From Mayamaea pseudoterrestris (lineage: Eukaryota), in the NCBI GenBank assembly GCA_027923505.1, contig BROI01000026.1, positions 62,001 through 126,000 on the forward strand: a DNA stretch of 64,000 bases. The letters run 5' to 3'. The notes beneath the pieces are model-generated. The model searched no databases. It saw only the letters and a list, made by a program, of their open reading frames with translations, and was not told where the DNA came from. Below are positions 72-10,515 of this stretch, in pieces (the stretch's first letter is position 1; every line of letters begins with the position of its first letter). The translations under genes were made by a program, and so were the position numbers.

Positions 72-236
72 CCTCTAAGTAAGCCTTTTTGATTCGTCAT
101 GACGCGAGATCTTGCGGCTCGCGAGGATGCGCATGGATGCCATGATCATCCCATTTTGGCCATGAGATTGACGAGCAAGAACAAGTCTTCTTCCTTAGCA
201 ACTACTTGTATTACTGTTACTCTCTTTGTTACTATC

Positions 237-1043
237 ATGGCATCCCTTATCCAAGCAACGACAGCCTCCTCCAGTTTCCACCGCGAGCATACGACTCGCC
301 CCATGGTGACTGGCACCAGCGTCGTTGGCTTGGTGTACAACGGCGGCGTCTTGCTCGCCGCCGACACGCTGCTGAGCTACGGAAGCATGGCCAAGAGTCA
401 GAACGCCGAGCGCATCAAGGCCATTGGAAACAGTTTCGTTGTGGGAGCGTCGGGAGAATATTCCGATTACATGAAACTCTTGCGCGTCTTGGAAGACAAG
501 CACTTGAGTGAGACGCGGACTGGCATCATTGAGGACGGTCAAACCGAAGTCACGGCGGAAAGTACATGGAACTATTTGCGCATGTTATTTTACAGCAAGC
601 GCAACAAGATGAATCCATACTGGAACGAAGTGCTGGTCGCTGGCTTTGGTAACGTCAAGGATGCTGCTGGCGCGACGACGGGCGGTGACGGCGAAACGTC
701 CAAACCCTTTTTAGGCATGGTGGACAAGATTGGAACGACGGTATCCGGAAACACGCTGGCGACTGGATTCGGCGCGTGGCTGGCGCTGCCGCTGCTGCGC
801 GAAAAGTGGAGACCCGACTTGACGGAAGGTGAAGCCCGGGCGCTGCTGGAGGATTGCATGCGCGTCTTGTTTCTGAGAGACTGTCGGGCCAGTCCGCGCA
901 TTCAGCTGGCCAAGGTGACGCGAGACGTCACCACTGGCAGTGTCGTGACGGCGGTTTCGGATCCGTACATTCTGGAGACGCAGTGGGATTCGGCGGAGTT
1001 TATGCGGCCCGTGGCTGGCTTGGAGGGTGATGGTGGTTGGTAA
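237..1043 (+). CDS. PSMB4: 20S proteasome subunit beta type-4 (beta7, PRE4-like)
   Basis: Motifs TTRPMVTGTSVVG, AADTLLSYGS, GASGEYSD, RNKMNPYWN, ATGFGAWLALPLLR, CMRVLFLRDCRA. ATG 237 chosen over ORF start 99. Confidence 0.93.
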   Translation: MASLIQATTASSSFHREHTTRPMVTGTSVVGLVYNGGVLLAADTLLSYGSMAKSQNAERIKAIGNSFVVGASGEYSDYMKLLRVLEDKHLSETRTGIIEDGQTEVTAESTWNYLRMLFYSKRNKMNPYWNEVLVAGFGNVKDAAGATTGGDGETSKPFLGMVDKIGTTVSGNTLATGFGAWLALPLLREKWRPDLTEGEARALLEDCMRVLFLRDCRASPRIQLAKVTRDVTTGSVVTAVSDPYILETQWDSAEFMRPVAGLEGDGGW

Positions 1044-1721: not shown

Positions 1722-4700
1722 ATGCTTCGCTTTAGCCATTGCTTGATTGCAGTGCTTGGTTTGACGACGCTACCATCCATCGAGGCATTCAACTCGTTTC
1801 TGCATCAATTAGCTACCAACGGAAGAGGAGTCTCGTCGTGGAGCGGCCATCATCATCCGCCCAAGACCTTTGGAATCGTTCCAGCAACACGCAGCAAGGA
1901 AACGAAAGCGTCACAGCTGCACGCTCATCGATTCGACTTTACCAATAGTTACCTTTCGTCACTATCAGGCAGTGGCACTGGGTTCACTCGCACCAAGGCC
2001 CTCTTTGACAGTGCGCGAGATAGTGGCGAAACGGCTACTGCATCTACGACTACTAGTACAGACGATGATGGCTTGGACTTGGAACTATTGCAGTCACAGG
2101 CGGGCGGCGCCAGGAAGCGAAAGCGCAAGTTGAACAAGAAGCAAGCCTCGACGCGACAAGTCAAATTTGTAGAGCCGTCCAGTAAAGATAGTGAGAAGGA
2201 GAAGGAGGCGAACAACACTAAAGGTGCTGCTGCATTGTCGACAAACGATTTTGCGGAAACGGACATTGCTGACTCGCTACAAGAGACTATAGTTGAAGCA
2301 AGGGAAAACGCATTGGCGGAAAGTGATGATGTAGCTGGCACTACGTTGGAACCAGATGGTGGAGCGGCTAAAATTACTATTGATGCTGCACCCAGCGAAA
2401 CTACAATCAACAATTCCGCAGACGCGGATGAGCAATTTGAAAGCAACGATGCGCCAGACAAGCCGCTCGAAATAGCTTTTGAAAGTGAAACCAATGATTC
2501 AATTCTAGCTGCACCGGACCTTGACAAGAGTTGGGATGTGAACGGGGCGTCCATGAAGGAATCACCAGTGGATGCGACAGCAACGGACGAAGACGAGACT
2601 GTTAGTGCCTCCGACGACGAGGAATCAATTTCGCTTGTGGATATGGATGAAACGACTGCGGCTATTGATCCGGTGGACGATGAATCACTAGCAGTCGATG
2701 CAGCCACGCAGCAATCAGCGAAAGAGTCGAAAGATGCGATTCAAATGGACGAATCCGACCAACTTTCTCCCATTGCTGATCTTGCCAAAGTTGAAACAAC
2801 GTTGCCTGTCGATGAGGAACCAGGTGCCACTGCTGATTTAGTGGAAGACGAACCTGCGGTAGAACCCGAGCAGCAATCAGATGCGACCTTTGAACAGGAT
2901 CTTGACGCTGACCTTGACGCCGATGAGTCAACTGTCTTGAACGATTATACAGTTACGAAGGAAAACGAGCAAGTTGAATCTGCTGCAGCAGCTGACGTTG
3001 CTGCGCCAAGCGTTGAAGCGAAAGCGTCTACGAGTACAGTCAAAAAGTCGTTTGCGCCAGGCAACAGCAGTGGCGGCTACAAGATTGTCTCCGACAGTGG
3101 CTTTTTGGGTGGACTTTCCGGCAAGTCGATTGTGATCCAGCCCGTCGCGGCAGAAAGGTCTTACGAAAATGCCGCGGATTTAACAGCGGACGAAGGTAGT
3201 GCCGAATTTGACGAGCCTTTTGCGAGCTTCGAGCAATCAACAGAGCCTATTACTGGTGTTGCAGAGAAGGAGACTATTGAGGAAGAGGTGCCTGTCAGCC
3301 AGTCGGATAATATCTTGGTCGCAGAAACTACGCCGCAGGAAAATGCCGAGGATGTGGAGTTGATGCCATTGCCTCCTGCTAATGACGCAACGGCCGAAGC
3401 ATTCGGAATGGGAACGCAAGTTGAAGACGATGCGTTCGTATCAAATATTGCGTCGCGAGACGACGCGGCTGCCGTAAATGATTTTGATTCCTCCATTGAT
3501 ATCAATGGCGAATCAGTGTTCGAGGACCCACCCGAAACAGCGTCCCCCGAGTCGGGTACGTCAGAGCTTGTATTCGCCGCAACCGAGAACGAAAAAGCGA
3601 GCTCGGCTTCGATGAATCTGAGGCCCAAACAATATTGGCGTGCACCAAACGTGACGGAAAGTGTTGCACCACGAGTCGAGAAGGTTGATGGTCTCAACAT
3701 ATTCTCGGCCCATGTGATTGATGATAGCTTCCGTTCATCGACCATGCTTGGCGAAACGCTAGATGATCAAATACAGCACATGATTGCGGCCGCTGACGAA
3801 TATGACTTGATGAAATTCATTATTCTGCAGCGGCGAGGCGAGCACGAGCGCGACATTCAATCGTTTGAAATTGTACTAGCGCCGGACACGTCTGCTGACA
3901 TTGGTTGGACGCTTTACAATATGGATAAATTCTCTGGGCATAAGGATGTGGACGACGGTATTTTAGGAGGGTCCATTTTTGTTGGGCCCAACGAGTTGGC
4001 CGAAGTAACTGTCAATTACGTTGACTCAACGGAACGAATCGGAACTGGCACACCAATCCAAGGAAACGAGGAGACTGTCATTCGTTGTGCCAACCGCGGC
4101 GCCGAGTGGTATGTGAACGGAGAACTTGTGGCGGCGACACCTCAGTTTCGACGAGGAATATGCGCCAACGGCATTCCAGCACCTTATGTGGGTATTCAAA
4201 AAGGTTTATTTCGGTTCACTAAGATTGAACTTGTAGACATTCCTGCAAAAAGACCGCCTGCCGGCTTGATATCGGGCGACACTTCCAAAGAGCCACCATC
4301 TGCTTCGATAGAAGGCGAAACAAGAATGGAACCTAATGAGAGTTCGGTATTAAACTCAGGTGGCGACGACCAGGTTCAATTTGCCAAGGATAATGGGACG
4401 GTTGCGACTGAAAATCCTGATATATCAGCACTGATGGAAGTCGACACGGATGGTCAGTTAAATGATAATAATTCTCCTGCCTTTGACACCGACATAAAAC
4501 CAACCGAATCTGGATCGACTGACATGATCATTGAATCTAATGATGATTCGAGTGCGGAAGTTTGGCTGGATGAATCGGGTGTGGATTCTGTAAAGTTTGA
4601 ATCAACAAAAATGTCCAGTGATATCACTGACGACTCGATTGTTGAGAAAACTACGGAAAGTGCGCTGGATGGGGTTGATGAGGACACTGCTGATTCGATG

Positions 4701-7700
4701 GATGCAAACACTGTTTTGGAAACAGAAACGGACAGACCAATGGACACGATAGACGACACTAGCTCACCTGCGGCAGCTGCTGATAGCCTCGATAAACAAT
4801 CAAGGGACGCAAGCGAGCTTGCCGCTAGTGTTGCGACAGCTACAGTCAATGAAGAGTTGGCACTGGGCAAGAAAACCTACTTGCCGACTCGGAACATGAA
4901 GAATGTCACAACGTCTGGTTACCTTGGCGAGCTCACTACTTCGTCGCCTCCGTCAGAATTGACCACCGGCGAGGTATTATATGAAGCAGCGGCATCGACT
5001 GCTGCCCAGCCTGTTTCTGCTGTGTCGAAAGCCGAGTCCGAAAGTAATGAAACATTGCCTGCTGCACCTATTCCTGCGAGTATTCTCAGTCTTCCAGACG
5101 AACAACGCAACCGAACAGAGACAGCAGCGGCAGCCTCCCAAGTTTCCAAGGCCAATAACGACAGCTTTGCTTCGTCAATGTCTAAATCAAACTCAAATCT
5201 GGCTTCTTTTGACGAACAACGAGTATTCGAAGCAAAATCTTCACAATCAACTAATCTTTCAGCTGCCGCTATGTCGCCTGACATGTCGGCAGACGCCATG
5301 ACTGGGAACGCAGCACCTGCTCAAAAGAAATCCTACGCACCCGGTGGCGGCACTATGCGAAATGTCACTACATTTGGGTATCTGGGTGATCTCAATGCCG
5401 GGCCTAAACTCGAAGCGGAGAAGACAGATTCTATCGACGAATCATTAGATCTAGCTACCGAGGCTAGCTCTGCCCAACTTCTGGCTACAGAACAGATCGA
5501 AAACACCACTGTAAGTGATGGAACAATAAAGGAAGATCAGTATGCGCCAACTTCAAATGTCACGGCCAAGAGTTTGCCAAAGAAGTCATACTCGCCCACA
5601 AGGAACATGAAGAATGTTACTACTACTGGTTATCTAGGAGAACTGGCCCCTAAAGCCGTACCTCCAGACGATCAAGCGATGCAGAACATAAAAGAGGTAA
5701 CCCACGAGCCTCCTTCCGTCACTTTTGGTTCAATAAAGCCGAATGGGGTACTTCAGGAGCCATCACCTGTGTACTTGCGTCAAGTTGATTATGTTGCCAA
5801 GACACCATCGAAACCATCGCAAGCTAATGTCAAACAACCGGAGCCAGTTCTTGTTGCTTCGGGTGGGGGCAGCTCGTCGGGCATGGATCTGAAATCAGCG
5901 ACACAACACTCGAATACAAGGAGCAGCGGTTTGAGGAAGAATGGCACAACTTCTGGCTATCTTGGCGAGATGAGCAGCAACGCGCTGTCTCCATCTACAG
6001 TAGTTGATCGTGTCAAATTTATGGCGACTGAAACTTCTCGTTCAAACGTTGTACATGGCGAGGGCGACACAAGGCTAGAGCAGCATGGCGCCATTAATGC
6101 CTCGCACGATCGTAACTACAGGGTGGTCGGTGGCGATGACGACAATTTTACGAGCAATTTGCGAGAATTCAGTGCTGGACCAAAACGTTCCGATCTGATT
6201 AATGCGACGAGGAGTGTCCCAGCTGACATATCTGACACCGGAACCGTCCCACACGTGATACCAGCACCAAACTCGTCATACATTAACGTCGCTTCTAAAA
6301 TTAAACAGCAGAGCAAAGCGAAGCACGGCGGCAGCGAGGTCCAGCATGGCCATACCTCTAAGGCAGCATCAAGAGAGAGACGAGAAGATGGCGCGTCGGT
6401 AACTGATACACATTCGCCCAAAGTCATTGATGCACCCCAATCTTTGTCTGGGTCGCCTGCCAAAGCGCCGTTCCCTTTCTTTTTTGCCGAAATGGATGGG
6501 TTAAAAAATACGGAAGAGATTGCACATAGCAAGGTTGATGTAGCTGCCATCACAGACGAGGCACCCCAAGAATGGAAGGCCGCTGAAAACGCAACGGAGA
6601 TCAGGATTGCGCCACCACCTATGGATATTCAGCACGCAGCGGAGCGCGTTGTGCATAAGGTCGAGCACCATGTAGCACATATTGGAAAGGCTATGTTGTC
6701 CGAAACTGCCAAAGGTGTAGAAACGTTTTGGGCGAAAATAAAAGAGTCCAAGCCATTTCGACCTATACCAATTCCGGATGTCAAAGACATCGATTTGACT
6801 CCTGAACTCGATACAAAGGGCATGACGGAAAGAATAATGAAGCGTCTTCCGCAGGAGAACCAGGCCAGCGGCGCTGGAGGCATATCGACATGGGACGGGT
6901 TTTTGAAAGCCGAAGAGAACTGGTCCAAGTTAAAGGAGTCGAAGGCGTTCCGCCCAGTTGGTAGTAACTCTCCACCCCAGTTTGTCGTGACTGACGGAAC
7001 ACTTGGTAATCCTAAATGCTGGGAAAAGCTTCGCATGCAACGAAATAAAAAGCTTGATTACGATGTTGTCGTTTGCGGCGGTACACTAGGTATCTTCTTT
7101 GCTACTGCGCTGCAGTTGAAAGGTTTACAGGTTGCAGTCTTAGAAGCTGGAAAGTTACGCGGTCGCGAGCAGGAGTGGAACATTAGCATGGACGAATTAT
7201 TGGAGCTGAAAAAGCTCGGTGTGTTGTCTCAGGAAGACATTGACGCTGCCATCAAGACGCAATTTCCTGGCTGTCGAAGTGGTTTCAAGAATATGGAAGT
7301 AACACCTTTGGAACAAGGTTACTTTGAAAATGGAATTGGTTACGAATGTGTGACAAAGGATGTTCTTAATTTGGGCATCTCACCAGCCACCTTGATCGAA
7401 CGTGTTGGTCAGCGGTTCAAAGATTTGGGTGGCGTCATTCGAGAGGATGCTCGACTTTACGGTGTTACTGTGTCTGACAACGTGGGTAGTGCTCTCGACT
7501 TAGGTGCTGACATGGAACCTATTACTTCTAGCCTGGTGCTTGACTGTATGGGCAACGCATCTCCTATCACTCGCCAACAGCGATGGGGAATGAAACCTGA
7601 TGGTGTCTGCGCCGTTGTGGGATCTTGTGCGGGAGGATATGACAAAGAGACAAATCTTATCGGCGACATTATCTACACGAACACCGAGATCCAGGACAAG

Positions 7701-8597
7701 GGAGAGGAAGGTATGCTACAATACTTTTGGGAGGCTTTCCCTGTGGGTATTGGTCGTGATGGGAAAGAGCCTGGTACAAGCGACGTCAAAACGACCTATA
7801 TGTTTACCTACATGGATGCCAGTCGAAAGCGTCCGTCTCTTGAAACTCTCATGGAGGACTACTGGAAACTTTTACCAAAATACCAACGGTCGATCAAAAA
7901 CCCTGAAACTGATTTGGATATCAAAAGGGTCTTGTTTGCGTACTTCCCAACCTATCGCGATTCCCCTTTGCAGTCACAATGGAACCGTGTCCTCGCGGTC
8001 GGTGATGCTTCGGGCATTCAAAGTCCTTTAAGTTTCGGCGGCTTTGGAGCACTGACGCGACACTTGGATAGAATATCAACCGCTGTTTCGGAGGCAGTAC
8101 AAAATGAATGCTTGAGCAAGGACCAGTTGAGCGAAATAAATGCGTATACGCCAAATCTGAGTGCAGCTTGGATGTTTCAAAAGGCAATGTCGGTCCGCAT
8201 GGGACAAAAGGTCGACCCCAAGTTTATCAACCGCCTTTTAGCCGGTAATTTTGAGGTCATGGACAACATGGGCGAACGAACCATCAAACCTTTTCTCCAG
8301 GATATAGTTAAAATTGATTCTCTCGTCGGAAGTCTGGCGCGAAGTTTTGTGGCCGATCCAACATTTATGCCGGAGATAGTCAAGCATGTCGGTATCCCGA
8401 CGCTTGTTGAGTGGATTGGTCACGTTGGCATGATGGGCCTGTATACGGCGTTGGACACAGCCGTTTCACCTATCCTCAAGCCTCTTGTCAAAAATATGGA
8501 GGACCCGAAGGAACAGTTTCAATGGAGACGGCGAATGGAAGCGTGGAAGTTCGGAAGTGGACGTGACTACGTCTTTTCTCCCGGCAGAGAAGAGTAA
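1722..8597 (+). CDS. CruA/CruP-family (lycopene cyclase-like) FAD oxidoreductase with ~1700-aa acidic N-terminal extension; probably plastid-targeted
   Basis: C-terminal ~520 aa has YDVVVCGGTLG, GREQEWNIS, LDCMGNASPI, VGDASGIQSPLSFGGFGALTRHL and WKFGSGRDY, typical of CruP. N-terminus is a signal peptide ending IEA-F followed by a Ser/Thr/Arg-rich transit-like stretch. Single 2291-aa ORF. Confidence 0.85.
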   Translation: MLRFSHCLIAVLGLTTLPSIEAFNSFLHQLATNGRGVSSWSGHHHPPKTFGIVPATRSKETKASQLHAHRFDFTNSYLSSLSGSGTGFTRTKALFDSARDSGETATASTTTSTDDDGLDLELLQSQAGGARKRKRKLNKKQASTRQVKFVEPSSKDSEKEKEANNTKGAAALSTNDFAETDIADSLQETIVEARENALAESDDVAGTTLEPDGGAAKITIDAAPSETTINNSADADEQFESNDAPDKPLEIAFESETNDSILAAPDLDKSWDVNGASMKESPVDATATDEDETVSASDDEESISLVDMDETTAAIDPVDDESLAVDAATQQSAKESKDAIQMDESDQLSPIADLAKVETTLPVDEEPGATADLVEDEPAVEPEQQSDATFEQDLDADLDADESTVLNDYTVTKENEQVESAAAADVAAPSVEAKASTSTVKKSFAPGNSSGGYKIVSDSGFLGGLSGKSIVIQPVAAERSYENAADLTADEGSAEFDEPFASFEQSTEPITGVAEKETIEEEVPVSQSDNILVAETTPQENAEDVELMPLPPANDATAEAFGMGTQVEDDAFVSNIASRDDAAAVNDFDSSIDINGESVFEDPPETASPESGTSELVFAATENEKASSASMNLRPKQYWRAPNVTESVAPRVEKVDGLNIFSAHVIDDSFRSSTMLGETLDDQIQHMIAAADEYDLMKFIILQRRGEHERDIQSFEIVLAPDTSADIGWTLYNMDKFSGHKDVDDGILGGSIFVGPNELAEVTVNYVDSTERIGTGTPIQGNEETVIRCANRGAEWYVNGELVAATPQFRRGICANGIPAPYVGIQKGLFRFTKIELVDIPAKRPPAGLISGDTSKEPPSASIEGETRMEPNESSVLNSGGDDQVQFAKDNGTVATENPDISALMEVDTDGQLNDNNSPAFDTDIKPTESGSTDMIIESNDDSSAEVWLDESGVDSVKFESTKMSSDITDDSIVEKTTESALDGVDEDTADSMDANTVLETETDRPMDTIDDTSSPAAAADSLDKQSRDASELAASVATATVNEELALGKKTYLPTRNMKNVTTSGYLGELTTSSPPSELTTGEVLYEAAASTAAQPVSAVSKAESESNETLPAAPIPASILSLPDEQRNRTETAAAASQVSKANNDSFASSMSKSNSNLASFDEQRVFEAKSSQSTNLSAAAMSPDMSADAMTGNAAPAQKKSYAPGGGTMRNVTTFGYLGDLNAGPKLEAEKTDSIDESLDLATEASSAQLLATEQIENTTVSDGTIKEDQYAPTSNVTAKSLPKKSYSPTRNMKNVTTTGYLGELAPKAVPPDDQAMQNIKEVTHEPPSVTFGSIKPNGVLQEPSPVYLRQVDYVAKTPSKPSQANVKQPEPVLVASGGGSSSGMDLKSATQHSNTRSSGLRKNGTTSGYLGEMSSNALSPSTVVDRVKFMATETSRSNVVHGEGDTRLEQHGAINASHDRNYRVVGGDDDNFTSNLREFSAGPKRSDLINATRSVPADISDTGTVPHVIPAPNSSYINVASKIKQQSKAKHGGSEVQHGHTSKAASRERREDGASVTDTHSPKVIDAPQSLSGSPAKAPFPFFFAEMDGLKNTEEIAHSKVDVAAITDEAPQEWKAAENATEIRIAPPPMDIQHAAERVVHKVEHHVAHIGKAMLSETAKGVETFWAKIKESKPFRPIPIPDVKDIDLTPELDTKGMTERIMKRLPQENQASGAGGISTWDGFLKAEENWSKLKESKAFRPVGSNSPPQFVVTDGTLGNPKCWEKLRMQRNKKLDYDVVVCGGTLGIFFATALQLKGLQVAVLEAGKLRGREQEWNISMDELLELKKLGVLSQEDIDAAIKTQFPGCRSGFKNMEVTPLEQGYFENGIGYECVTKDVLNLGISPATLIERVGQRFKDLGGVIREDARLYGVTVSDNVGSALDLGADMEPITSSLVLDCMGNASPITRQQRWGMKPDGVCAVVGSCAGGYDKETNLIGDIIYTNTEIQDKGEEGMLQYFWEAFPVGIGRDGKEPGTSDVKTTYMFTYMDASRKRPSLETLMEDYWKLLPKYQRSIKNPETDLDIKRVLFAYFPTYRDSPLQSQWNRVLAVGDASGIQSPLSFGGFGALTRHLDRISTAVSEAVQNECLSKDQLSEINAYTPNLSAAWMFQKAMSVRMGQKVDPKFINRLLAGNFEVMDNMGERTIKPFLQDIVKIDSLVGSLARSFVADPTFMPEIVKHVGIPTLVEWIGHVGMMGLYTALDTAVSPILKPLVKNMEDPKEQFQWRRRMEAWKFGSGRDYVFSPGREE

Positions 8598-8801
8598 TAG
8601 CACTGGCACCGAGAAGACACGCTCACCAAAACCAATTGCTACCTCTATTGCGTCTACATGGCATGGAAACTGAATTGTCAAGACTTACTTGATATATACT
8701 AGTAGATACAATCACAAACGTTACTGAACATTCGTTCCACCTTGAGTTTATGATGATGATAAAAAGCCGCAGATAGCCAGCATTGTATTCACCGATGGTG
8801 T

Positions 8802-10515
8802 CTATAGTGCTTTGCTCACTGGCAGATGCTCCGATCCCCAACCAGGACAGGCTTGCGACACCGTCTCGTTGTGCTCATGTATCCAGACCAGTAGTTTAAG
8901 TACTTGCTCCGGCGTCAAAATCTCTCGGCACCGGCTCAGTCTATCGTGAAAAATGCGCGTCTTTTCCTCGCAAAGTTCCTTAAGCTTGTTCAACAACGCC
9001 AGGCACTGCGTCAATTAAAAAAGGAGAAGACATTATTTTGCTACTTCCTTCTTCACTGTGCAACAACTCCATCTCACGTACCTCACGCAAATTGGCGCAG
9101 ACGGTGCGAATCTTGGCGCGCTGCTCCAAAATCTTTTTATTCTGCGGTCCAGTAATGCCGAGTTCTTTTTGCAGCAAGCCAACAATGGGATTCGTCGTTG
9201 GCTTGCTCGCCAGTGTTCGACTAATGGGCGCATCTGGTTGAGGATTGCTGCCTCTGCCATGTCCGCCTCCAGTCGTTGAACCATTCATTAACGGCCCTTG
9301 TCCCAGCGTATAGAGGCCCATTTTGGTCACATTCGTCGGATTCGCCAATCGTTCCAGCTGCTCCAAATGCCACTGCAGTTCCAAGTGTCGACGTCGGCCG
9401 TAATCACTATACAGCTCCTGGTAGTGATCAATGAGCTTTTGCATTTCGTCCGGACTGGCATTCTGCTGCTGCAACAATCGCGAAAGCTGGTGCGCGTGCT
9501 CGTCGCGATCCTGGTTGGCTCGCTGATTTTGTGAGCAAAGGGCGGCGAGGCGTGATTGTAGAATGGCATTCTCCTCCTGCAGTAGCGCAAGCTTTGCGTC
9601 GCAGTCTGTGGGACGAGGCCGTTTCCGGCGTTTAAATGCCGATGCTGCTGATGCATTCGTAGTTGTGGTAGATTGCCTTGTCGCCGCATCAGAATCAGTT
9701 CCTTCCGTAGATTCGGCTGCAACAATCGAGCGTTTGCGGCTATTTTCATTCTCGCTGTTTTGCAAGGCTAATGCAGCTGCTTCAACTGATGCAGTAGGCA
9801 TTGGTACTTGCGCTGCATTGGCTGCAGTCGCACCTGATGACGTCGTGGTTGATGTAGTCAAACTCTGCAACGCTTGCATTGGCAAATCAATCCCCAGCCG
9901 CGAGGCTAGCGTCGTAAATTGCGCAAGTAGCTTGGAGCGCTGCTTGTTATCGTCAGCTGGTAGTAATTGTTGTTGATGCGTTTGCTGCTGCATCAATTGG
10001 GACTGCTGCTGCTGTAACAGCGCTCCGCCACCGAGGTGCGCTGCTGCAGGCTGCAGTCCGTTTCCTTGATGCTGCGGCGAATGAGTCGGAACGGGAATTA
10101 CTTGTGTACTATTCGATCCATTCAAGCGCTGCGTAATCTGGCAACCTCTAGCGTCATCACTGATGTGCGTTTGCATTGCAGTTTGCGGTGCAAGAGTCGC
10201 AATTGGAGCTGCTGCTGATTGCTGCAGCGCTCCTCCTCCATTCGCTACTGCTGCACTATCATCCATGACTCCAAAATCATGCAGCAGAGCCTGCTCCGCC
10301 GCTGTTAAGGTTTCATTCAATGCATAGGACGATGACGAGGAATCTTCATTTGCATTTGCAGCAGCAAGTCCTTCCAACGAGGCCGGAAGCATAAGCTGAT
10401 GATCCATGCGAATCATTTCATTGTAAAAGAGTGATTCTAGCAAAGTACAGTCAAGACTGTTATCCGGTTCATTCTGATCTGAAAAAGCATCGTTATTGTT
10501 ACCAAAGTCATTCAT
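8802..10515 (-). CDS. bZIP-like transcription factor with helical C-terminal domain; intron 9006-9081
   Basis: Basic region KRRKRPR followed by leucine heptads (LALLQEENAILQSRL); Q-rich region. GTACGT...GCAG intron joins ...ANLRE to CLALLNKL... in frame. Confidence 0.72.

Follow-up and report, generated by a model that had tools for sequence, protein, structure and literature searches.

A peptide module common to a CruP-type flavoenzyme with a long acidic arm and to stand-alone repeat proteins of the diatom Mayamaea pseudoterrestris

For most diatoms, the packing of Rubisco into the pyrenoid lacks an explanation. [quoted passage not shown] In Chlamydomonas, a short Rubisco-binding motif is described as being repeated in EPYC1 and as targeting multi-domain proteins to the condensate as well. 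For T. pseudonana, a preprint presents DPC2 as an abundant, Rubisco-interacting hub of the pyrenoid matrix and reports that no repeat linker was found (bioRxiv 10.1101/2023.10.26.564148). Linkers have been searched for, according to the criteria outlined in PMC11570498, as disordered proteins with repeated elements 20–120 residues apart. We analyzed a 64,000-nucleotide stretch of the freshwater raphid diatom Mayamaea pseudoterrestris (assembly GCA_027923505.1, contig BROI01000026.1, positions 62,001 to 126,000 of the forward strand; hereafter the window, whose first letter is position 1), in which a preliminary description, made by a model from the letters of the sequence, had noticed a CruP-like enzyme preceded by a very long extension with repeated motifs. 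This gene offers a testable peptide code for the question above: a conserved module that one genome carries in an enzyme, in a protein with a predicted lectin-fold domain and in two basic proteins with many repeats, together with a faint link in sequence to DPC2 of the pyrenoid.

The gene is a single open reading frame (ORF) of 2291 codons plus a stop codon (1722–8597, plus strand), with no internal stop. Its product corresponds to the NCBI hypothetical protein MPSEU_000986700 of M. pseudoterrestris (P0122, 2282 amino acids), with 100% identity across 99% of the queried residues 1–1700, and combines a predicted signal peptide, followed by phenylalanine at position +1, with an acidic arm of 1,670 residues and a flavoenzyme of the CruA/CruP type. 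The arm (residues 23 to ~1690; pI 4.3, Asp plus Glu 17.3%) is the acidic extension of ~1700 residues reported in the preliminary description. It contains few hydrophobic residues and its composition points to disorder outside residues 637–846; these residues, by contrast, appear to form a folded, beta-rich domain, so that the arm cannot be called disordered over its whole length, as it had been. The main features are listed here, each with the evidence on which it rests.

1722..8597, plus strand: whole gene (ORF and 100% identity to P0122; RNA-like contigs)
1722..1790, plus strand: predicted signal peptide, residues 1–22, then Phe at +1 (..SIEA/F), read by eye
1944..1976, plus strand: NSYLSSLSGSG, first element (DYLSxLSG) of the family module (motif alignment)
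3042..3116, plus strand: module copy 1, KKSFAP..GFLGGL, the most divergent (motif alignment)
3630..4259, plus strand: predicted beta-sandwich, concanavalin-A-like, residues 637–846 (identity to relatives and AlphaFold2 model)
4869..4934, plus strand: module copy 2, KKTYLP..NVTT.GYLGEL (motif alignment)
5325..5393, plus strand: module copy 3, KKSYAPGGG..NVTT.GYLGDL (motif alignment)
5580..5645, plus strand: module copy 4, KKSYSP..NVTT.GYLGEL (motif alignment)
5934..5972, plus strand: module copy 5, RKNGTTSGYLGEM, which lacks the KKSY.P element (motif alignment)
6639..8594, plus strand: CruA/CruP-type flavin adenine dinucleotide (FAD) flavoenzyme, residues ~1640–2291 (homologues, atlas neighbours)

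The five motif copies and the N-terminal SYLSSLSG (starting at nt 1947) all stand where they had been reported, and they exceed chance expectation. Indeed, K[K]S[YF].P occurs at residues 441, 1050, 1202 and 1287 (nt 3042, 4869, 5325 and 5580) and [GS][YF]L[GS].[LM] at residues 76, 460, 1066, 1219, 1303 and 1412, and none of 20,000 shuffles of the arm residues attained the observed 4, 6 or 4 paired matches (mean counts expected from the shuffles, 0.004 and 0.008). When the whole window was translated in six frames (127,996 codons), this ORF held all four strict YL matches and all four KKSY.P matches among ORFs of at least 150 residues. The DNA of copies 2–4 shows synonymous third-position differences beneath the conserved Lys, Tyr, Leu and Gly codons, which argues that the likeness of the copies has been kept by selection at the peptide level and does not stem from a recent duplication. 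Likewise, the arm of the window protein (P0001) and that of a metagenomic protein (P0123) are 35% identical across the 753 residues aligned, with nearly identical modules. Allelic differences from public sequencing runs tell a similar story: of the 40 that were listed (there are 223 more), 33 fall within the ORF. Of these 33, 4 synonymous and 9 non-synonymous changes lie in the arm, all of them outside the modules, and 18 synonymous and 2 non-synonymous ones in the enzyme. The sample is small, but this pattern fits spacers that drift freely, modules under constraint and an enzyme under strong constraint.

An N-x-[ST] sequon lies 5–12 residues upstream of the aromatic core in all five window modules (residues 448, 1061, 1214, 1298 and 1407; NVT in three, NGT in one and NSS in one). 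NVT is likewise found in the three modules of P0123, and the stand-alone repeat proteins described below have no sequon at this place.

The module is not restricted to the enzyme. The five window copies were turned into a profile of 37 positions. Of 1.84 billion representative proteins, eight matched it at an expect value (E) ≤0.001, and six of these were true matches on reading; P0129 and P0130 were rejected as unrelated once their sequences had been read. The true matches include two other Mayamaea proteins, and metagenomic proteins that have 2–10 matched stretches (one of the latter is a fragment). MPSEU_000014600 (P0124) combines a presequence and a coiled-coil-like stretch with 11 repeats of STGDYLSAMSGS..GPKKSYAPGGGSMKVVKESGYLGNLN; MPSEU_001057200 (P0125) has 15 repeats and, at its C terminus, a beta-sandwich of the type found in the arm, with no enzyme. 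The metagenomic members are P0126 (777 residues, 10 repeats), P0127 and its cluster-mate P0134 (repeats plus beta-sandwich), and P0128 and its cluster-mate P0135 (repeat proteins). In all, 41 modules from nine proteins fit one consensus, A-S-T-x-DYLSsmSG, ~8 residues, pKkSYAPgGgk.K.VketGYLg.L, i.e. a module in three parts: [DS]YLSxLSG, ~8 residues, KKSYAP, ~10 residues, GYLGxL. Judged by this alignment, the window copies are degenerate members of the family that keep elements 2 and 3, and the N-terminal NSYLSSLSG is an element 1. The repeat period of the stand-alone proteins is ~50–78 residues. P0124, P0126, P0128 and P0135 are basic (pI 9.1–9.9) and rich in Ser plus Thr (23–29%); in P0124 and P0126 the KKSY.P elements are mostly 62–78 residues apart, and in P0128 and P0135 the GYLG elements are ~45–100 residues apart.

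In P0125, seven modules read GGGKWKPVKE, with Trp where other members have Met, Phe or Val; this KWKP is superficially like the Trp-centred sticker of PYCO1 but is a different motif. We set aside a Pfam match of P0125 to a calpain EF-hand (no matched stretch) as a repeat-driven artefact.

Since the modules and the beta-sandwich both occur without the enzyme, and jointly in P0125, the arm is, on sequence grounds, a captured cassette joined to the enzyme. No Pfam model exists for the module-bearing proteins, and the literature search found no description of the module or of these Mayamaea proteins (the motif strings returned unrelated text only), nor any 'YLxxL' paper in a plastid context; among the Mayamaea papers listed by title, none deals with this gene. 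New here are the module and the cassette, together with the joining of the latter to an enzyme of the CruP type; a sticker common to a linker and its clients is known from green algae. Two other searches for relatives came back empty. A word-based search with residues 1040–1330 of the arm against shorter proteins gave nothing at E≤10, but this search is insensitive since it also missed P0008, which bears a module. A degenerate DNA pattern for KKSYAPGGG, searched in metagenomes, hit six loci; the peptide was in frame at two of these, neither of which is a relative.

Several of these proteins also share a type of presequence. The bipartite plastid presequences of diatoms follow an Ala-x-Ala/Phe rule ('ASAFAP'; the slash marks the cleavage site). 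By eye, the window protein has a signal peptide followed by Phe at +1 (..LPSIEA/FNS), Phe-type cleavage sites can be read in relatives (..AAYG/FSS in P0126, ..AAAA/FGS in P0125, ..VAFA/FSG in P0102, an orthologue of the enzyme), and a hydrophobic signal followed by Phe is seen in four to five members of the module family. Residues 1–22 with the following Phe are therefore predicted to open a bipartite plastid presequence of the diatom type. The preliminary description had named a lack of conservation of the motif among the findings that would speak against it; the module is kept both in P0123 and in stand-alone repeat proteins with plastid-type presequences.

P0122 differs from the window protein solely at the extreme N terminus. 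The ATG at 1722 is the first in-frame one, 13 codons past the upstream stop, and yields the full signal peptide plus Phe. The deposited model begins with MMLGLTT, a start that leaves no space for a signal peptide, and for this reason its 5′ end looks mis-predicted.

The folded part of the arm was then modelled. Residues 637–846 are conserved, hydrophobic and beta-rich, with 61% identity to P0123 and 44–46% identity to P0125 and P0127. An AlphaFold2 model from four sequences is all-beta (predicted local distance difference test (pLDDT) 58.9, predicted template modelling score (pTM) 0.61); an earlier model from two sequences was set aside (pLDDT 34.7). With the former, Foldseek retrieved galectins and CBM66 (E 1e-4 to 1e-3, template modelling (TM) score 0.34–0.58), and the VIA structure search, which is independent of Foldseek, gave Z 9.3–10.6 to PL7 lyases, a GH16-family endoglucanase, CBM66 and galectins (ranks 1–10: root mean square deviation 3.1–4.4 Å over 129–166 aligned residues; Z at least 8 for 75 chains). 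Rank 6 of the latter search, a 1082-residue sialidase, was set aside. With medium confidence, we take residues 637–846 to be a concanavalin-A-like beta-sandwich: the model shares the fold of the lectin/glucanase sandwiches (galectins, CBM66, PL7, GH16, SPRY), whereas sequence identity to them is 4–15%, and the fold leaves the ligand unspecified. Pfam gave no match for this region, its placement in the protein atlas gave only low-recognition beta-rich leads, and a metagenome scan with the beta-sandwich alignment gave 183 pattern stretches and no relative. Complex prediction for the beta-sandwich with the module scored 0.01, which is uninformative either way.

The enzyme part (the last 600–650 residues) has 3537 homologues at E≤0.001, the best 120 of which show 65–78% identity and are 530–1008 residues long, mostly 590–720; the enzyme alone is ~650 residues in most diatoms. 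The CruA/CruP-like identity given in the preliminary description agrees with the names borne by its relatives. Atlas neighbours (score 0.97–0.99) are 'Lycopene beta-cyclase' (Streptophyta, 574 residues), and 'Lycopene cyclase, CruA type' and 'Lycopene cyclase family protein' (Cyanobacteriota), and the name 'lycopene cyclase CruP', from the Joint Genome Institute (JGI), is attached to a fragment that clusters at ≥90% identity with the Attheya orthologue P0014. Kinship to CruP/CruA rests here on such source-given names, not on a tree or an alignment with a reference CruP, and 'CruP-like' is a reasonable label on that basis. Pfam and NCBIfam gave weak, partial DAO, hydroxylase and GG-reductase matches at residues 1771–1820 (the DAO match has E 2e-4 in orthologues of the enzyme); TIGR01790 (CrtL/CrtY) scored 13 bits, below its cut-off of 209.5, and the Pfam scan of the window protein gave no PF05834 match. 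The VVCGGTLG and AVGDASG blocks are invariant in the 12 diatom sequences aligned. A genome-contig scan with the enzyme alignment gave eight pattern stretches and no relative. Two features lie within the enzyme module.

7056-7151, plus strand: dinucleotide-binding beta-alpha-beta
7992-8048, plus strand: GDASG..SFGGFG block

As for the known members of this family, CruP (sll0659, AT2G32640; a paralogue of CruA) and the C-terminal 600–650 residues of the window protein are flavoproteins of the same kind, and the 1,670-residue arm is what the window protein and the P0123 cluster have in addition. The catalytic role of CruP is described as unsettled in a review.

Several lines of evidence indicate that arm and enzyme belong to one gene, as the preliminary description had assumed. 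Among proteins of 1260–4010 residues searched with the arm, P0123 (1912 residues) was the only other one that matched, so that a 1,670-residue arm on the enzyme was seen only in the window protein and in the cluster of P0123 (three members, 1834–1958 residues). P0123 is collinear with the window protein: a YxSSLS element, an acidic-LeuLeu-basic island, an acidic spacer, the folded domain, three PKKSY[AS]P..NVT..GYLGELE modules, a Pro-Phe-Phe element and the enzyme follow each other in the same order. Its enzyme is 76% identical to that of the window protein across 652 residues, and the two are sisters (support 0.999) in a tree of the 66 of 122 sequences that have the chosen anchor motif. We also aligned to the window the contigs of four public sequencing runs that contain the locus (X1–X4). 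The longest records are 8–11 kb in X1, X3 and X4, and 56 kb, covering intergenic DNA, in X2. One X1 contig omits 76 nt with CT..AC ends in the adjacent minus-strand gene, i.e. a GT..AG-type intron, which is why we read X1 as cDNA-like; by our own reading of the contigs, X3 and X4 are cDNA-like as well and X2 is DNA-like. X1 contigs cover 2801–8661 without any splice joint within the ORF, and a single record (6129–8023) bridges the arm/enzyme border. Positions 2001–2800 have no coverage in any of the four runs, a gap which is uninformative because the DNA-like run also lacks coverage there. Signs of two genes or of removal of the arm by splicing, which the preliminary description had named as evidence against itself, were not seen in the contigs over 2801–8661. 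That arm and enzyme form one gene is thus supported.

We then considered the orthologous enzymes. The core [SGNAT][YF][LM][DGSENQ]x[LIM] is found in the N-terminal extension of 7 of the 121 other enzyme homologues and KKSY.P in two of the 121, and all the enzyme domains combined contain only two such cores. In several orthologues the motif comes straight after the presequence (e.g. ..AFA/FSGNYLDNL...SYLDQL). One such extension, that of P0102, has five YLDxL-type motifs, and its residues 21–78 match positions 44–102 of the Pfam profile PF25195 (DPC2) with E 2e-7; weaker matches were obtained with P0111 (E 0.013), P0149 (0.033) and P0005 (0.28). The YLDxL motifs of P0102 fall at profile positions ~21–26, 45–50 and 69–74, and these coordinates suggest that DPC2 itself may carry spaced YLxxL motifs. 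The likeness to DPC2 consists of these matches, which neither the window protein nor the stand-alone repeat proteins show.

Taken together, these data point to the following mechanism. The modules would be docking sites (stickers) that hold the enzyme, by several weak contacts, on the same partner or assembly that the stand-alone repeat proteins bind or build inside the plastid, and the beta-sandwich would add a second contact. We regard such multivalent docking to a plastid assembly as nearly, but not quite, an even bet. Linker-like relatives and the hint from DPC2 make the pyrenoid matrix, or its surroundings, the leading candidate for the assembly: the stand-alone proteins fit the linker criteria given above since their repeats are mostly 62–78 residues apart (P0124, P0126). 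An analogy is offered by green algae, where clients in the pyrenoid have the Rubisco-binding motif of the linker. Yet the pyrenoid or Rubisco as the target is unlikely in our judgement, since the arm is acidic and a cyanobacterial CruP is found in lipid droplets. The tether of the preliminary description is accordingly retained in part: the module is selected and multivalent, but the arm that carries it is neither purely disordered nor basic, has no PYCO1 stickers and has no DPC2 match. As for the pyrenoid in particular, the stand-alone relatives and the P0102 match are indirect points in its favour, and the same charge and absences stand against it.

Several observations indeed weigh against docking at the pyrenoid, or against docking as such. 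The arm, with its pI of 4.3, is unlike PYCO1, and the window protein would therefore be a client, not a linker. Its KKSY.P elements are 609, 152 and 85 residues apart, with ~109 residues to copy 5, so that only two of the four module intervals (range 85–609 residues) fall within 20–120 residues. The PYCO1 stickers KWSP(R/Q)GGS and GTGYNP were found in none of the 171 proteins examined. The P0102 match to DPC2 scores 31.8 bits and, like the weaker matches, falls below the curated cut-off of 70; the window protein, taken whole or as nine pieces, and the stand-alone repeat proteins gave no DPC2 match even at E≤10; and a hidden Markov model of the module matched the DPC2-like extensions with E ~1–4 among 155 proteins, which is not significant. 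Most orthologues have no motif, although 21 of the 121 are cut short and show no extension. The contigs fall short of proving a single transcript. Finally, CruP of Synechocystis (sll0659; plant homologue AT2G32640) is listed in the cyanoglobule (lipid-droplet) proteome in a table of PMC12223511, a hint that enzymes of this family reside in another sub-compartment.

Comparison with the described systems gives likenesses of architecture. P0124, P0126 and P0128 have in common with PYCO1 the type of presequence, a basic charge, disorder and repeats, but none is a PYCO1 homologue. Among the sequences of solved structures, whose content of PYCO1 was unchecked, neither P0126 nor the motif profile had a meaningful match at E≤10; the sole match, a chance 10-residue stretch (E 3.7), was discarded. 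As in Chlamydomonas, where linker and clients share a sticker, the module is found here ~7–15 times in full-length stand-alone proteins and five times on an enzyme with a beta-sandwich, and this module-bearing enzyme with a carbohydrate-binding-type beta-sandwich resembles tethers of the SAGA1/2 type as these are described. By contrast, there is no sequence relation between the two systems, and the window arm is acidic with irregular spacing. A more complete scheme can be drawn, which we consider doubtful: the three-part module would be a pyrenoid-matrix sticker of naviculoid diatoms; proteins of the MPSEU_000014600/P0126 type would be Rubisco linkers where PYCO1 is lacking; the YLxxL core would be common with the DPC2 of centric diatoms; and the CruP-type enzyme, like the beta-sandwich proteins, would act as a client or tether that this code recruits. 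If true, this would be the diatom counterpart of the Rubisco-binding-motif system of Chlamydomonas. If the code does target the pyrenoid, it provides candidate linkers for a large diatom group and sites a flavoenzyme related to carotenoids or reactive oxygen species where carbon is fixed; if it targets another structure, it still amounts to a docking system of the plastid that has not been described, and the enzyme is a clear example of the capture of a scaffold cassette.

The alternative that survives best keeps the docking but moves it elsewhere: the modules would tie the enzyme to a plastid structure other than the pyrenoid (plastoglobule-like droplets, thylakoid margins or the envelope) or build a homotypic network. 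The cyanoglobule location of sll0659 and the absence of a direct DPC2 match in the window protein speak for the former, and the fact that motifs combining aromatic residues and Leu can, in disordered chains, stick to themselves, like the GTGYNP tyrosines of PYCO1, for the latter. However, inspection of the arm sequence revealed no hydrophobic or amphipathic membrane segment, and the sole outside link of a YLxxL-bearing extension is to a pyrenoid protein family, DPC2. We find this alternative unlikely too.

Somewhat less probable still is a passenger or polyprotein fusion, in which a piece of a repeat gene would have landed upstream of the enzyme, the arm being cleaved off after import or acting independently, with no role in positioning. 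Such a fusion would agree with the existence of the modules and of the beta-sandwich as independent genes, with the fact that most orthologues work without the arm, and with the Pro-Phe-Phe element, which in several orthologues could mark the mature N terminus. But the fusion has been kept, collinear, in two lineages. Shorter extensions with YLxxL also precede this enzyme in other diatoms, suggesting that motif and enzyme are durably linked in function.

The modules could also be sites of processing or modification, for instance of N-glycosylation in the lumen of the endoplasmic reticulum or of modification of Lys or Tyr, as the sequons of the five window modules and of the three P0123 modules would allow. 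However, stand-alone members have KVVKE, KPVKE or KAVAP in place of the sequon and yet retain KKSYAP and GYLGxL, so that the sequon is not the conserved core; we hold this explanation to be improbable.

Last, the repeat family could be secreted, serving a gliding raphid diatom at its cell surface or in adhesion, with the long ORF being a mis-joined or chimaeric gene. The basic stand-alone proteins are rich in Ser, Thr, Gly, Ala, Pro, Tyr and Lys, a composition that is typical of extracellular matrix proteins as well, and the fold of the beta-sandwich is common among carbohydrate-binding modules. We nevertheless hold this to be most improbable, given the continuous ORF without a stop, the contig that joins arm and enzyme, the same fusion in an independent metagenomic lineage, the Phe after the signal peptide in four to five family members, and the plastid or cyanobacterial nature of the enzyme family.

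Two further elements of the arm, outside the modules and the beta-sandwich, recur in relatives.

2061..2141, plus strand: island of an acidic run, Leu-Leu and a Lys/Arg cluster, residues 114–140 (collinear with P0123)
6468..6500, plus strand: Pro-Phe-Phe element PFPFFFAEMDG, residues 1583–1593, before the enzyme (similar strings in orthologue extensions)

Pro-Phe-Phe strings are found in the extensions of P0123, P0102, P0008, P0111, P0007 and P0016, and the element may mark a mature N terminus or a separate contact site; it precedes acidic residues. The island holds a KRKRK..KK cluster, and its counterpart in P0123 reads DDDD..LLEALLLQG..KKKKRRK. The basic patch resembles the nuclear-localisation type, which is odd for a plastid protein.

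The contigs also revealed variation and neighbouring features. An in-frame insertion of 3 nt (ACG) in the arm, at 3239, distinguishes one allele in both X1 and X2, and numerous single-base differences along the locus indicate heterozygosity or strain variation. The neighbouring minus-strand ORF (8980–10515) is Gln/Ser-rich, and the 76-nt intron spliced out in run X1 lies at 9006–9081. At positions 1–400 of the window, the depth of X2 is ~2900 compared with ~30–45 elsewhere, and contigs break or turn back at 65–75, from which we conclude that a high-copy repeat abuts the start of the window. The upstream 314-residue ORF at 99–1043 (plus strand) is, by eye, like a beta-type subunit of the proteasome.

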